The notes beneath the pieces are model-generated. The model was not told the origin of the DNA. It saw nothing but the letters and a program-made list of their open reading frames with translations, and ran no database searches. Positions 40,730-55,037 of a DNA stretch of 60,000 nt are shown here, piece by piece. Within the stretch, counting starts at the first letter, position 1. Each line of letters begins with the position of its first letter. Made by a program: the position numbers and the translations under genes. This DNA comes from Callorhinchus milii (Eukaryota): contig NW_024704742.1 in the NCBI RefSeq assembly GCF_018977255.1, positions 25,360,001-25,420,000 on the forward strand, written 5' to 3'.

Positions 40730-41352
40730 GTGGGAGGATTGGGGGGTGATGGGGAGGATTGGGGGTAGTGGGAGGACTTGGGGTGTGGGAGATTGGGGGG
40801 TGTGGGGAGGATGGGGGGTAGTGGGAGGACTGGGGGTGTGGGAGGATTGGGGGTGGTGGGGAGGACTGGGGGTAGTGGGAGGATTGGGGGGTGATGGGGA
40901 GGATTGGGGGGTAGTGGGAGGACTGGGGGTATGGGAGGATTGGGGGGTGATGGGGAGGACTGGGGGTAGTGGGGGATGGGGGGTGATGGGAGGATTGGGT
41001 GTAGTGGGAGGACTGGGGGGGTAGTGGGAGGATTGGGGGGTAGTGGGAGGACTGGGGGGTAGTGGGAGGATTGGGGGGTAGTGGGAGGACTGGGGGTAGT
41101 GGGAGGATTGGGTGGGTAGGTGGTGGGGAGGATTGGGTGGGTGGGTGGGGGGTGGTGGGGAGGATTGGGGGGTGGGGTGGGGAGGATTGGGGGGTGGGTG
41201 GGGAGGATTGGGGGGTGGGGTGGGGAGGATTGGGGGGTGGGGTGGGGAGGATTGGGGGGGTGGGGGGGGAGGATTGGGGGGTGGGGTGGGGAGGATTGGG
41301 GGGTGGGGTGGGGAGGATTGGGGGGGTGGGTGGTGGGAAGGATTGGGGTGGG
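40730..41352. repeat. G-rich minisatellite (unit about 18-20 bp, GGGAGGA(T/C)TGGGGGGT(A/G)GT), roughly 30 copies
   Basis: Directly visible tandem array beginning about 90 bp downstream of the DRD5 stop codon. Confidence 0.95.
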
Positions 41353-41438
41353 GTGTAGGTGTTTGTGTGTGTGTGTTTGTGTGCGTGAGTGTGAGAGAGA
41401 GACAGAGAGAGAACAGATCTCCTTTGCTTTTGTTTCTT

Positions 41439-42968
41439 TCAATGCAAACCGTTGAGGGTAAACGAAGTCACTTTGTCCGGGGACACGTCCGGCTCTGGGT
41501 CCAGACCGTAGAGCGGGGGGGAGTCGGTGGTGGCCGCCGCCGGGACCACCTGGTGACCGGCTGAGATCTGGGACATCCTGTCGAACATGTCCTCCCTGTC
41601 CTGGGCGCAGCTGCCCACGGCGTTGGGGATCATACTGACATAGGCGGCCACCATCTCCCGGTGAAACACCGTGTCCCGGTTGCAGGAGGCCAGCTCGTTG
41701 CTGAGGTTCACCGTCTCCACCGGGGTGGCCGAGCAGAGGCGGCGGCAGCCCAGGAGGCTGGAGAAGGCCTTGCGGAACTCGGCGTTGAACGCGTACACCA
41801 CCGGGTTGAGGGTGGAGTTGGCCCAACCGCACCACACGAAGACGTCGAAGGTGGTGTCCCCCACGCAGGGCAGGCGGGAGGGGCCGCGCCGACAGAAGGG
41901 CACCAGGCAGTTCACCACGAAAAAGGGCAGCCAGCAGCACACGAACACCCCCATGATCACCGACAAGGTCTTCAGCACCTTGGTCTCTTTCCTGAAGGAG
42001 CTCTTCAGGGAATTGTGGTGCTGCTGCTGGTGTTGCTGCTGGTCCTGGTGCTGCTGCTGGTGCTGCTGGTGTCGCTGCTGGTGCTGCTGGTGTCGCTGCT
42101 GGTGCTGGTGCTGCTGCTGCTGGTCCTGGTGCTGCTGCTGGTCCTGGTGCTGCTGCTGGTCCTGGTGCTGCTGCTGGCGCGGATCTCGCTTGCTCCTGCG
42201 GCAGCTCTTGGCGTGTTCCGCCGCCCTCTCCAGCGAGGCGATCCTCCTGATCTGGATCTGGGCAATCCGGTAGATCCGGGTGTAGGTGACCAGCATGATG
42301 GCCACGGGGATGTAGAAGCTGATGAGCGACGAGGAGATGGCGTAAGTCCGGTTCAGGCTGGAGTCGCAGTTGGTGCCGCTGCCGCCGCCGCTGCTGGAGT
42401 TGAGCTGGGACACGGTGATGGTGGCGGCGGTGGCGGTGGCGGTGCGGGTCTGGTGCTGCTGCTGGTGGTGGCTGGTGGCTTTGTGCCAGTTCAGTTGCAC
42501 GGGGATGAAGGAGATGAGGACCGAGAGAGCCCAGGTCACCCCGATCATCACGAACGCCAGCCTCCTGGTCATCTTGCGCTCGTAGCGAAACGGGCTGGAG
42601 ATGGCCCAGTACCGGTCCAGGCTGATCACGCACAGGTTCAGGATGGAGGCGGTGGAGCACATGATGTCGAAGGCGATCCACACGTCGCAGAAAGCCCCGA
42701 AAGGCCAGTAGCCGGCCACCTCGGCCACCGCCTTCCAGGGCATGACCAGCAGGGCCACCAGCAGGTCGGAGAGGGCCAGCGAGACGATGAAGATGTTGGT
42801 GACTTTGGTGCGGAAGTGGCGGAATCTGAGCACCGCGGCGCACACCAGGGCATTGCCGAGCAGCGTGAAGAGGATGAGCAGGGACAGCAAACTCCCAGTC
42901 ACTACACTGGCCGCCAGCTCCTTCCTCGGACCCCCTGTGGGCTCCTCATGCCCAGTCCTGTTGGACAT
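41439..42968 (-). CDS. DRD5: D(1B)/D5 dopamine receptor, intronless class A GPCR, 509 aa
   Basis: ATG at 42968 (MSNRTG...). 7TM motifs: [107 protein letters not shown]. The C-tail [27 protein letters not shown] is D5-type. Synteny with SLC2A9 and OTOP1 supports DRD5 over DRD1. Confidence 0.95.
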
Positions 42969-43560
42969 GATTCCCGGCTGGAACACAAGACTCGTTGGAT
43001 CTGCACACACCCCCCCCCCCCACCCCCCCCCACCTCCCTCACTCCCTCCCTCCCCTCCTCCTCCTCCTCCTCCTCTCCGGTTGCTCTTACATCCCCCGGT
43101 CACCGCCGCCCCGGACTCGGACAGGCGTCAAGGACCGGAGAAGCCGCAGCCGAAGAGACTTCATTGATTGGAAACGAGTCCGTATCAGGAGTCGCGGCTT
43201 TTACTGTGTCTCACGCGAAACCTCCTCATCCCCCTCCGCTCTCCCTGTCTCACTCACTCACTCACTCACTCACTCACTCACTCACTCACTCACTCACTCG
43301 CTCGCTCACTCACTCACTCACTCACTCAGTCGCTCGCTCACTCACTCACTCACTCACTCACTCACTGATCCACGTTTCTTCCTCTAAAGCGCAAACTTGA
43401 GTCGGAGCGGATTTTTGCACATTCCCCAACAGTCGGCGAGAGCTCCGACTCCGACTCCGACAGTAAAAACCAAATGCCTTCAACACACTGTGTGGGGGTG
43501 TGAGTCCCCGAGAGAGAGAGTATCCAGAGGCGAGACTGCGATACGGCAGCCACGGAGATC
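41470..43560. promoter_or_regulatory. CpG island covering DRD5 and its 5' flank; a second CpG-rich patch at about 44700-45160 is a possible promoter or upstream exon
   Basis: High GC and dense CpG compared with the CpG-depleted, AT-rich remainder of the window. Confidence 0.7.
43250..43366. repeat. (TCAC)n tetranucleotide microsatellite with TCGC variants
   Basis: Direct tandem repeat about 280 bp upstream of the DRD5 ATG. Confidence 0.95.
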
Positions 43561-44040
43561 TGGGGGGGGGGTGAGGGGCAGGGGGGTGGGGTGCGGGGGT
43601 GGGGGGGTGGGGAGGGGGTGCGGGGGGGGAGGGGGGTGCGGGGGGTGGGGAGGGGGTGCGGGGGTGGGGAGGGGGTGCGGGGGTGGGGAGGGGGGTGCGG
43701 GGGGGTGAGGGGGGTGCGGAGGGGGTGAGGGGGGTGAGGTGGTGGGGGGGGGTGAGGGGAGGGAGGGGGTGAGGTGGTGGGGTGGGGTGAGGGGGTGGGG
43801 GAGGGGTGAGGGGGTGGGGTGAGGGGGTGGGTGAGGGGGTGAGGGGGTGGGGAGGGGGTGGGGTGGGGGAGGGGGTGAGGGGGTGGGGGGGGTGAGAGGG
43901 GGTGGGGAGGGGTGAGGGGTGGGGGAGGGTGAGGGGGTGGGGGAGGGGTGGGGGGGTGAGGGGTTGGGGAGGGGTGGGGTGGGTGAGGGGGGTGAGGGGT
44001 GGGGGGGGTGAGAGGGGAGGGGGGGATTAGGGGGTGGGGG
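43560..44040. repeat. G-run low-complexity tract (GGGGGT/GGGGA units)
   Basis: About 480 bp dominated by runs of 4-9 G. Confidence 0.95.
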
Positions 44041-44149
44041 TCATTTTGGGTACCAGAGGAAACAGAGAGAGAGCAAATCATTCATCTTCCAGATACCTTA
44101 GTGGATGCTCCATTTTGGTCCTTAGAAACGACCGACATAAAAGATATTA

Positions 44150-44692
44150 GGGAGAGGGGGGGGGGGGGTGGGGGGGGGGAGAGGGAGGGAGTGGGGGGGG
44201 GGGAGAGAGAGGGGGAGTGGGGGGGGGGGGGAGAGAGGGGGGGTGGGGGTGAGGGAGAGAGAGGGGGGGAGTGGGGGGAGGAGGGAGAGAGGGGGGGAGT
44301 GTGGGGAGAGGGAGAGAGAGGGGGAGTGTGTGTGGGGGGGAGAGGGAGAGAGAGGGGGGAGTGGGGGGGGGAGGGAGAGAGAGGGGGGAGTGAGGGGGGA
44401 GAGAGGGAGAGAGAGGGGGGGAGTGGGGGAGGGAGAGAGGGGGGGAGTGTGTGGGGGAGAGGGAGAGAGAGGGGGAGTGTGTGGGGAGAGGGAGAGAGAG
44501 GGGGAGTGTGTGGGGGAGAGGGAGAGAGAGGGGGGGAGTGGGGGTGTGCGTGGGGGAGGGAGAGAGAGGGGGGAGTGAGGGGGGGGAGGGAGAGAGAGGG
44601 GGGGAGTGAGGGGGGGAGAGGGAGAGAGAGGGGGGAGTGAGGGGGGGAGAGGGAGAGAGAGGGGGGGAGTGAGGGGGGGAGAGGGAGAGAGA
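44150..44692. repeat. Purine-rich minisatellite (about GGGAGAGAGAGGGGGGAGTGAGGGGGGA)
   Basis: About 540-bp homopurine-dominated tandem array. Confidence 0.95.
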
Positions 44693-45162
44693 CAGAGTCC
44701 CACCACCGTTGATTCCGACAACGATTAAATCGCTTGAAGGCGAACGGGAAAGAAATAACCCCCAAACAATTAAACAATAAAGACCTTAAGAGCTGCAAAA
44801 ACAGTGTCAGATGTTGCGCAAGTTATCCTCCCGTTTACTTCCCGAACGATTGACTTCAGTGCCCGGGAAAAAAACACACCACTTTCGTTATTCTGCCGCC
44901 GAGCGCTATCCCCTGAGAACAACAACAACAACAACAGGTGCCACTCGCGATCCTCCGGATCTTCCCGGATATCTAAGTCTCCTTCACTTATTCCCTGTCT
45001 CGCTCGATGGGCCGAGAGAGCAAAAGGGGAGGAAAGCATCAGCAATCCCAGACCAGAACCAGACCAGAACCAGAACCAGACCGGGAGCAAAACCGAACAC
45101 CGTCAGCAGCACTCAGACCCGGTGCAGCGTCTGTGGTCCGGTCTCTGTTGCCAATACAGACT

Positions 45163-45464
45163 GGAGTCCCGTAGCTCAGTGGTTAGAGCACTCGCTTTGC
45201 AAGCGAGAGACCTGAGTTCAATTCCAGGCACAGGGCGAAACCTTGGGCAAGTTTCCTTACTCCACACAAAACCAAAAACAATAATAAATTGGTCATTTTC
45301 AATCTACCACTGTTTGTGGGACATTGCTGTGCGCAATTGGCTGCCACGTTCGCCCACAAATATACAGTCAATTCACTTTACAGTGTGTTCTGTGAAGCGC
45401 TTTGGGACGTCCTCACGACATGAAAAGCGCTATAACAAATGCAAGGATTATTATTATTATTATT
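45163..45464 (+). mobile_element. Young tRNA-derived SINE (centrally deleted variant)
   Basis: ggagtcccgtagctcagtggttagagcactcgctttgcaagcgagagacctgagttcaattcc head; near-identical to 51341-51667; (tta)n tail. Confidence 0.93.
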
Positions 45465-52581: not shown

Positions 52582-53943
52582 CTTTAAAAGAAAAGAAAAA
52601 CAAAATTTAGAACCTGTGTGTAGATCAACAATTGTCATTATCAAATAGTAACTCGCTGATGATAAAATCTTACGGACAACGTCACCTGCAAGAAATAAAA
52701 AGCATTATCTTTATGACAGTGGCAATTTTTTTAGCCTTTGAATATAATCAGTAGCTATGCTACTGTGTTTACATTTAACGAACAACAACCTAATTTATAT
52801 AGAGTCCCTCACGCAGAGTAGCATCCCAGAGTGCTTGACAGTGGCGGAGCATGGCACCGAGCTGGGAGGAGTGGCCCTAAATACAGTTGAATAGGAAGGT
52901 CTTCAGGCGCGACCGGAAAATGGGGAAGGATGGGGCAAGGCAGAGAGATTAAGGGAAAGACTTCCAGAGTTTCAGGGCATAGTGGCTGAAAGTTTGGCCA
53001 TTGATGGTGGAATGGAGGGCATGAGGGATGAGAATTAATACCATGGTTTAAGTACTGAAGCAGTTTTTGCCAATACAGGTAATTCCCTGTACTGTACAAT
53101 AATGCTATCAACATTTGTTCATGACATTGTAAAACTAGGTTGATAACCCCTGCCACCCCCTTGACTTTGGTGTATATTGTCATTCCTGGATGAACATCTT
53201 TCTGGATAATTGTATATTAAATCAACTGCAACTTTTATTATTTCCAAATAAGGCTTTATAAAAGTTTAAATAATTCTTAGTTCACATTTTAATCGTTTGT
53301 ATTATCTTTATAAAGATATTTGATGTGTTAATAGAAATAAATCCATGTATTTGATATAGTGACTTATCACATCTTTAAGATTCTCAAAATGCTTCACTGG
53401 ATTTACTGTAGTGTAGTGGCTGTGTAATTTGAAGGCAAAGCTGGCAGCCAATGTCTCATAAATCGCCATGAAGTGAGTGATCAATTTGATTTTGAGTGAT
53501 CAAACAGATTTAAGTGCTTTGAGACACTGCCTTGTTCGGAGGGCGCTATATAAGTGCAAACTGTTGTTGATTTGCAGGATTGTTGGCCGACAAACCAACT
53601 GGAGAAACTCTCTTCTCTGATCAAGTGGTGTCAATAGATCTTTAAGGTCCACCTGAACAGGCAGATGGGACGTTTAACAGCTCATCCCAAACACAGCACC
53701 TCTGACAATACAGTGATCCCTATCCAGCATCTTCAGAAATACTTTACCTGAGTACATACATGTTATGATCTCCATGTTGAGTATGCCATATTTTGAAGAC
53801 ACGTTTAAACATTCATCAAATTAGAAGTTACTGAGTAAAGAAAGGTTGGAGGGAAGGGGCAATAAGGGTGGTACTTATGAATGAAAACTGAAGAGATTTT
53901 TCACTTATTTTTAAAATGCAATGTTTTGCTAAATTTCTCTCAC

Positions 53944-54914
53944 CGAAATATTGCACAGGAATAAAAAGGCAGCAACATTCTTGGTGAACTGTCTTTCCTT
54001 GCTCAGTTTTTCCGACTTCCTTAAGCTTGAGTGAGGAGGAGGAGGAGAAGGAGGAGGAGAAGAAGAAGCAGAGTCTTGAGAAAGACTCAGGTCACTATTG
54101 TATCCCTCGCTGTTCTCAACCCAATCGCAGGAAGGTTTGGACAGAGAAACGCACTGAGGAGTTGAGCAGGACGACTGGTTATCCGAAGTCTCAAAGGCTT
54201 TGTTGAGGATCCCGCAGTATGAACATGTCAGAGGGAGATTATTGGAACTCGATACTGTGAATATCCCTTGAATCATCCCCACTTCCCCATCCGTTTCACC
54301 ATGTTTCCGATAAAGGGATTCAATTATAAACAGGTTCTGTAGGTATTTCTCAATGATGACCAGGACAGAGAATGACAAGTTCAGCCAAGTGTGAGGGGGC
54401 TGTGTTTCCCCACAAACAGCAGCCACGATGGAACACCAGGACATAAACCAAGACGCACATGCTGTGCTCACCAGCAGATTGCCATCCAACTTCCTGGTGG
54501 GGTTTTTGCAATAATCCAGGGATCTTTTGTCAACTCTATAAATGACCAGACCGGCTGCAGCTGCTGCAGACATTAAGCAAAGCACCGTGATACCGTATAG
54601 ATAAAACATAGCTACAGCTGACACTCGCTGCTCTGTTGAATGTCCCACCTGTGAGCTGTACACAATGAGAATCCCTATTGTGGCTGCCAGCACTGAAGTT
54701 CCCAGAACTGGACCTGCCATTACACTGTAGGTCCTAAAGGTAACCTTCAGAGCTCTGTGCTCTTCCAGGGTGCGCCCAACGTTCTTCCACATAACATAAA
54801 ACATGGCAGATGCAAAGACGTGGAACTCAATGTTGAAAGGGTACATATAATGGGAACTGTTGTAGAAAATAGCGCAGGCATTTGTATTGCAGCTGCAATT
54901 TGGTCCAGTGTCAT
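53944..54914 (-). CDS. OTOP1: Otopetrin-1, exon 5 (971 nt)
   Basis: Acceptor tttctttgtag and donor TCG/gtgaga. Encodes C.C.T..C....YMYPFNIEFHVFASAMFYVMWKNVGR...KNPTRKLD..LL...EKYLQNLFIIES...FLFLCNIS. Starts in phase 1 and ends in phase 0, consistent with its neighbours. Confidence 0.95.
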
Positions 54915-55037
54915 CTACAAAGAAATGGAATAAAGCATTAACACAGATTATTCTAAAACAAAACACATATCAAATTGCGTGGCTGGCTGGCACTTACATG
55001 ACCTCTTATTTTTTCTGTTCAAGGCTTAAACCCTTAC

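Follow-up and report, generated by a model that had tools for sequence, protein, structure and literature searches.

An in-frame glutamine/histidine tandem array in the third intracellular loop of a D5 dopamine receptor gene of Callorhinchus milii

A stretch of 60,000 nucleotides from the elephant shark Callorhinchus milii (RefSeq assembly GCF_018977255.1, contig NW_024704742.1, positions 25,360,001 to 25,420,000 of the forward strand; hereafter the window) carries a gene for a D5 (D1B) dopamine receptor, in which a tandem array of 162 nucleotides (54 codons; 42015-42176, minus strand) lies in frame within the part encoding the third intracellular loop (ICL3). The array, the existence of which is established in one assembly, is probably a product of slippage in situ that is tolerated by the receptor and nearly neutral, and it may modestly damp or sharpen coupling. 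It was first described as a 54-residue Gln/His repeat in an original prediction made from the DNA alone, and the residues and flanks given there match the translation of the open reading frame exactly.

Read codon by codon, the array comprises three perfect copies of (CAGCAGCAGCACCAGGAC), a 21-nucleotide unit encoding QQQQHQH, two perfect copies of (CAGCAGCGACACCAGCAGCAC), a further 18-mer and the shorter pieces QQQH and QQQHH, so that the 18-bp and 21-bp in-frame units of the original prediction are both present. The gene and the components of the array are as follows.

41439..42968, minus strand: single-exon coding sequence for the D5 (D1B) receptor, with 509 codons and a stop codon (41439-41441), assigned from the ATG-to-stop open reading frame, Pfam, the best structure match and the tree
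42015..42176, minus strand: in-frame CAG/CAC array encoding residues 265-318, a 54-residue Gln/His insert at the ICL3 tip
42123..42176, minus strand: three perfect 18-nucleotide units CAGCAGCAGCACCAGGAC (QQQHQD), from the codon listing
42102-42122, minus strand: 21-nucleotide QQQQHQH unit, from the codon listing
42060..42101, minus strand: two perfect 21-nucleotide units CAGCAGCGACACCAGCAGCAC (QQRHQQH), from the codon listing
42015..42059, minus strand: end of the array, with the 18-mer QQQHQD, QQQH (containing the sole CAA) and QQQHH, the closing QHH being the end of the patch found in elasmobranchs

Tandem Repeats Finder reported the array at 42019-42177 with a period of 18, 8.3 copies, 85% matches and a score of 181, and also detected a period of 6; the tandem structure is far beyond chance. 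The encoded residues are 35 Gln, 13 His, 4 Asp and 2 Arg, with no Ser, Thr or Tyr among them. Gln is encoded by CAG at 34 of the 35 positions and by CAA at one, His by CAC at all 13, Asp by GAC and Arg by CGA. T is absent from the coding strand of the array, and the T-free run of 170 nucleotides to which it belongs is the longest in the coding sequence. As in a coding variable number tandem repeat (VNTR), the units lie in tandem and in frame within an exon. A pure polyglutamine (CAG) expansion was considered and rejected, the longest uninterrupted Gln run being four residues and His, Asp or Arg intervening every 2-5 residues. Folding of the array gave z-scores of -0.58 as RNA and -0.55 as DNA, that is, no structure beyond that due to composition.

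The assignment of the gene to D5/D1B in the original prediction is borne out by Pfam, bit scores, database names and phylogeny. One open reading frame of 509 codons extends from transmembrane helix (TM) 1 to the C-terminal tail with the array in frame, and the protein has the rhodopsin-family seven-transmembrane fold (Pfam 7tm_1, PF00001; E-value 1.7e-65, residues 38-392). Among solved structures it comes closest to human D1B (8irv, 580 bits), ahead of D1A (512 bits), and nearly all of its best 120 database matches are named D(1B), with Callorhinchus milii entries nearest. A tree of 42 rows placed it within a chondrichthyan D5 clade (12 rows; support 99 in the Shimodaira-Hasegawa-like approximate likelihood ratio test, SH-aLRT); this tree was built without a named D1A, D1C or D1E outgroup, and the D5 subtype rests on the bit scores and the tree jointly. 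The coding region is intronless, a single ATG-to-stop frame, in keeping with the D1-class genes, which are described in sections of PMC5900934 as lacking introns and having a short third loop.

The receptor encoded in the window retains the residue in every column that is invariant across 78 D5-type sequences, including D101, D118-R119-Y120, S212-S214, C345-W346-L347-P348-F349-F350, N388-P389-Y392, C94 and C201. These we take to be, respectively, the TM3 aspartate, the DRY motif, the TM5 serine cluster, CWLPFF, NPxxY and the cysteines joining TM3 and the second extracellular loop (ECL2); the ligand and activation motifs that the original prediction called intact (DRY, CWLP-FF, NP..Y, the TM5 serine and the TM3 aspartate) are thus all in place. 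Among 209 columns conserved at 97% or more, it deviates at seven, the median for the other sequences being 1 and their highest count 14; the seven are L52F, V98I, L352V, S370G, F380C, I422L and Y429C. The C. milii D5 stem branch has a length of 0.42, against 0.06-0.2 for the elasmobranch tips, which is unexpected in a species reputed to be slow-evolving. Judged by its sequence the receptor looks live and somewhat diverged. A pseudogene was rejected, the reading frame being intact and all the invariant columns kept.

To place the loop among its relatives, the variable segment of ICL3 was defined as the residues between the LERAA and KVLKTL anchors; of 167 proteins, the 138 with both anchors were measured and the 29 lacking one were excluded. 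At 79 residues, the segment of the window receptor is the longest among the 138, and no other consists of tandem units. The lengths were distributed as follows.

27 residues (mode): 78 of 138, most D5 orthologues
38 residues or fewer: 126 of 138, including the 78 at 27
41-43 residues: 2 of 138, one protein with a run of ten His and one of Podarcis raffonei with Gly and Gln/His runs
50-75 residues: 9 of 138, teleost proteins named D(1)-like
79 residues: 1 of 138, the window receptor

The window receptor thus departs from the short third loop of the D1-class (79 residues, the mode being 27), while every other family feature tested, synteny apart, is present, and despite its long segment the gene stays within the D1-class family. 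The original prediction had placed the repeat in the ICL3 of a class in which this loop is normally short. The location holds, as the array lies in frame between the extensions of TM5 and TM6; the shortness of the loop has exceptions, namely the nine teleost proteins with segments of 50-75 residues and the D1 receptor (D1R), which is counted among the long-ICL3 receptors in passages of Sadler et al. 2023 (PMC10033409). The nine teleost proteins are P0148 (Esox), P0165 (Salvelinus), P0151 (Micropterus), P0144, P0150, P0155, P0161, P0163 and P0164, and the eight of them that were placed in the tree form a clade of their own apart from D5 (SH-aLRT 100). Like the window receptor they have a long ICL3, with His-rich patches in Esox and Salvelinus; unlike it, they have no tandem repeats, and their inserts, which are conserved within the clade, look older and fixed on sequence comparison. 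This clade scores about equally against human D1 and human D5. It emerged from a search with the loop region among proteins of similar length, in which no other protein with a comparable Gln/His array was found; when shorter proteins were searched with residues 226-345, the 13 matches were all ordinary D1-class fragments of 36-77% identity, none of them with the array.

The nearest relatives indicate where the array may have come from. All ten elasmobranch D5 sequences have segments of 25-34 residues with a small Gln/His-containing patch at the same column (for example KRDSQQRQHIQHHS, DSQQQHIQHHS, DARQQVQVQHHS and EPRQQQQQMHHHS, and also DARQQVQVQHH). The borders of the window array, DPR-QQQH at the start and QHH-NSLK at the end, match this patch, and the array therefore looks like growth within an ancestral patch and not like an insertion from elsewhere. 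A short patch of the form ..D-P/S-R/Q-QQQH-x-QHH.. at the apex of ICL3, common to sharks and rays, would have been the seed; we infer that it grew in place to 162 nucleotides through replication slippage or unequal exchange of CAG/CAC-based units of 18 and 21 nucleotides, and that the array, read through as coding sequence, would have lengthened the variable segment from about 27-34 to 79 residues with the remaining receptor intact. The near-pure CAG/CAC codons and the perfect copies of units point to recent mutation and not to a long-kept function.

Smaller Gln/His growth at the same column is seen in D5 of lizards (skinks and lacertids), characiforms and catfish, with segments up to 43 residues, and since it recurs in squamates, characiforms and catfish this column of ICL3 appears to be a slippage hotspot. 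The small Gln/His and poly-His runs in other D5 orthologues (segments of 34-43) share with the window array the position, the residues and the likely cause, CAG/CAC slippage; they lengthen the segment by at most about 16 residues, in homopolymer form, whereas the window array lengthens it by about 50, in a higher-order structure of 18- and 21-nucleotide units. The view that the array adds a new His-rich domain to the receptor is overstated: the Gln/His patch was inherited from an ancestor and has expanded several times by lesser amounts, the array being the extreme of a known tendency. The claim that the array is lineage-specific stands insofar as it is missing from all ten elasmobranch D5 sequences and from the three D1-class paralogues of the same genome, the segments of which have 38, 27 and 27 residues, the large array being found in D5 only; it may belong to Callorhinchus or to all holocephalans, the searched sets containing a holocephalan D5 from C. 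milii alone, and on the sequences compared the expansion would date from after the split from the elasmobranchs. The paralogue with the 38-residue segment, a D1-like gene at C13:8591351-8594697 (minus strand), has a run of eight Gln (five CAA and three CAG codons) at the equivalent apex of ICL3 and a run of five in the C-terminal tail, so that two D1-class receptors of C. milii bear Gln runs in ICL3.

Several observations weigh against an array that is translated, tolerated and nearly neutral, and the first of these come from the public gene models. All four C. milii models (RefSeq XP_007895536.1 and three Ensembl-derived UniProt entries) skip most or all of the array. The RefSeq protein (457 residues) is identical to the window receptor at 456 of 457 residues apart from one 52-residue gap; the skip has 156 nucleotides with the ends AT..CC or TC..CA and leaves a segment of exactly the modal 27 residues. 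Among the Ensembl models, one has a 174-nucleotide GC-AG skip, one a piece in a shifted frame (PPGP) and one another shifted-frame piece of 10 residues, and they also skip 72 or 75 nucleotides of a low-complexity ECL2 at GC-AG, which RefSeq retains. As they carry upstream exons specific to the species, which are obtainable only from transcript data, they rest at least partly on such data, and transcripts without the array may exist. The openness of the frame through the array is uninformative, because a T-free strand cannot hold a stop codon. The parts of the locus concerned are the following.

42369..42482, minus strand: low-complexity ECL2, 38 residues between the PVQLNWH anchor and a second anchor, with HHQQQHQ, a Thr/Ala-rich run and a Ser/Gly run
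45054-45101 and 45157-45225, minus strand: two upstream exons of the Ensembl models, probably 5' untranslated region (UTR), located by tblastn of P0002/P0003 at 100% identity
40444..40656, minus strand: alternative 3' exon of the Ensembl model P0020, located by tblastn at 98.6% identity over 71 residues

The ECL2 was also considered as a length outlier in its own right and rejected, 38 residues being within the family range of 6-63.

It is thus conceivable that the array is real DNA that is spliced out of some or most mRNAs, in an exitron-like or non-canonical manner, the receptor in vivo having a normal short ICL3; the agreement of the four models in skipping it, the two skips that can be written as GC-AG and the modal length of the RefSeq product all speak for this. 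The signals for such an event are wanting: no skip was found that combines GT-AG (or strong GC-AG) termini, a branch point, a polypyrimidine tract and an intact protein product. The nearest upstream GT is at residue 226, in TM5, with none from there to the end of the array, and each of the 22 in-frame GT-AG skips would remove sequence from the end of TM5 onward, invariant columns among it. Splicing needs a U-containing branch point and a polypyrimidine tract, and the 170-nucleotide T-free coding strand offers neither before any acceptor inside the array, which makes a normal intron very unlikely. Moreover, the four models give four sets of junctions, none of them GT-AG; the like skipping of 72-75 nucleotides in ECL2 by the Ensembl models looks like the behaviour of an aligner or gene builder at low complexity; and the RefSeq junction codon gives Glu where sharks and the window have a conserved Asp, which suggests homology-guided placement. 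With no GT-AG option, a T-free stretch and models that disagree with one another, the skips are probably artefacts of the pipelines or of reverse transcription at low-complexity, GC-rich sequence, and removal by splicing is held to be unlikely. We infer from the sequence that the array would be translated. A different doubt concerns the assembled DNA itself, as the array could be over-expanded, mis-sized or chimeric and the true gene could have a much shorter patch: the CAG/CAC motif is common, with similar arrays at many loci, minisatellites flank the GC-rich region, and the exact 509-residue protein is absent from a collection of 15 billion sequences, though consistent removal of the array during annotation would have the same result. 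This explanation appears quite improbable in view of the orderly units, of a frame that is kept between the ancestral start DPR-QQQH and end QHH-NSLK, and of the lack of a second copy of the D5 locus in the assembly. In one study, the shares of sampled 31-mers of the coding sequence that were present in four samples were 0.97, 0.93, 0.91 and 0.87; 192 of the 1500 words overlap the array, so that by arithmetic a genome without any array word could reach at most 0.872, and three samples (0.91-0.97) exceed this. These shares slightly favour the presence of the array, the words being unpositioned, the array words redundant, the study a single one and the top sample possibly the source of the assembly. 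Two further runs, presumed to be RNA, contained 0.33 and 0.22 of these words, and runs of a second organism 0.07-0.08; these values carry no weight here.

As regards the consequences for the receptor, the array would act as a low-complexity spacer at the apex of the loop, which lies between the cytoplasmic extensions of TM5 and TM6 and where the segment is least conserved and least constrained, and its effect, if any, would be exerted through loop length, by gating the access of the G protein to the cytoplasmic cavity. Since the insert has no Ser, Thr or Tyr, it provides no new phosphorylation sites and no role in a kinase barcode. From its composition, its charge should be slightly negative at neutral pH and turn positive as the His residues protonate. 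In an AlphaFold2 model built with 78 sequences, most of the insert was predicted as helices continuing TM5 and TM6, with a predicted local distance difference test (pLDDT) value of about 80 at residues 291-310; the model is poor overall (mean pLDDT 56, predicted template modelling score 0.34), insufficient for searching by fold, and the helical insert is a weak lead only. Helical prediction of polyglutamine is a known bias.

A selected functional module would be the opposite of near-neutrality: a length-tuned ICL3 gate, a His-rich sensor of pH or Zn2+, or a helical stalk altering basal activity, choice of G protein or partner binding. The predicted helices speak in its favour, a long and partly His-rich ICL3 has arisen independently in the teleost D1-class clade, and the long D5 stem branch (0.42) could also mean altered selection. 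Loop length is the sole literature-backed route to an effect. Passages of Sadler et al. 2023 (PMC10033409) report a blocking of the G-protein cavity by ICL3, with access and selectivity gated once the loop has about 45-46 residues or more, and list D1R among the receptors that need ICL3 for selectivity. The model of autoregulation given there offers a mechanism based on length alone, through closed states that occlude the cavity; it was built, as far as those passages go, on the beta2-adrenergic receptor and grafted loops, not on Gln/His repeats or D5, and its extension to this receptor is ours. The near-pure codons and perfect units indicate recent mutation, the insert has no phosphorylatable residue and the structural model is poor, on which grounds a selected module is considered rather unlikely. 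Sensing of pH or metal by the His-rich insert is pure conjecture, although a His every few residues might make coupling sensitive to pH or Zn2+. We also see little likelihood that the array is a translated and length-polymorphic coding minisatellite which makes the variable segment of ICL3 about three times as long in a Gs-coupled receptor of the D1-class and thereby tunes its basal activity or the gating of G proteins; were it true, the gene would be a natural experiment on autoregulation by ICL3 length, hidden because RefSeq and Ensembl splice the array out. A tolerated, nearly neutral slippage product is the reading retained here.

The surroundings of the gene are rich in repeats. The stretch from 40 to 46 kb has 57-66% GC and a GC skew of +0.22 to +0.41, against a background of about 40% GC, and the minisatellites that bracket the coding sequence have periods of 17-44 and 142 nucleotides with up to about 30 copies.

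40730..41355, plus strand: G-rich minisatellites with periods of 19, 22, 38 and 44, directly downstream of the stop codon
43562..44691 (43562-44040 and 44149-44691), plus strand: G-rich minisatellites upstream of the coding sequence

A hand count gave approximately 34 other loci of the genome with CAG/CAC-like compound arrays, which have 69-86% identity to the D5 array and in some cases exceed 1 kb. The minisatellites and these arrays fit a repeat-prone setting. The other arrays were also considered as donors of the insert and rejected, being generic CAG/CAC compound microsatellites, and growth in situ is the simpler account. Examples are found at C1:58369910-58371175, C2:50971158-50972921 and C19:10891025-10892713; locus L003 has an 18-nucleotide unit, CAGCAGCAGCAGCACCAC, in 11 copies, and locus L007 a GCA-like array of 675 nucleotides. 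A (CTCA)n microsatellite (29.5 copies, 94% matches) lies at 43249-43366, in the presumed 5' flank or UTR. At a distance of 11 kb from the D5 gene, an otopetrin-like open frame of 346 residues (53932-54969, minus strand; Pfam Otopetrin, E-value 2.2e-17, profile positions 158-366 of 434) probably belongs, on its sequence, to an otopetrin gene next to DRD5, as one of its exons. OTOP1 presumably shares a chromosome arm with human DRD5. The name OTOP1 has no occurrence in PMC5900934.

Two known systems invite comparison. The 48-bp VNTR in exon 3 of DRD4, with a proline-rich unit and documented length polymorphism, lies in the ICL3 of a D2-class receptor; like the window array, it is an in-frame tandem repeat that lengthens this loop of a dopamine receptor and leaves the ligand pocket untouched. 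DRD4 is D2-like and Gi-coupled, whereas the window gene is intronless and Gs-coupled with Gln/His-rich units of 18 and 21 bp, and the likeness is one of analogy, not homology. In ataxin-1-type tracts, polyglutamine is interrupted by His, and the interruptions are thought to limit DNA instability and aggregation. A CAG tract broken by His codons is common to both, but ataxin-1 is a nuclear protein, and the window array is situated in the loop of a membrane receptor, with a longest Gln run of four and CAC as the His codon. An in-frame repeat in the ICL3 of a G-protein-coupled receptor is thus already known, as in DRD4; what is new is its occurrence in a D1-class receptor with different units. 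No paper mentioning a Gln/His or any coding repeat in D5 was found in a literature search that covered mostly titles and abstracts.

In other respects, the array is what CAG/CAC slippage would ordinarily produce at a GC-rich locus prone to repeats. Its annotation is a trap, as RefSeq and Ensembl derive from a single intronless gene four shortened proteins that differ from one another, and so hide a coding low-complexity insert; comparative studies that rely on them would meet an ICL3 of falsely normal length and, where Ensembl is the source, an ECL2 that is falsely short as well. If translated, the segment would be the longest ICL3 segment of the 138 D1-class receptors measured and the sole one of tandem units. 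High basal activity is ascribed to D5, and a translated array would provide a natural pair, with and without insert, for relating ICL3 length to Gs coupling and to the basal activity of this receptor.

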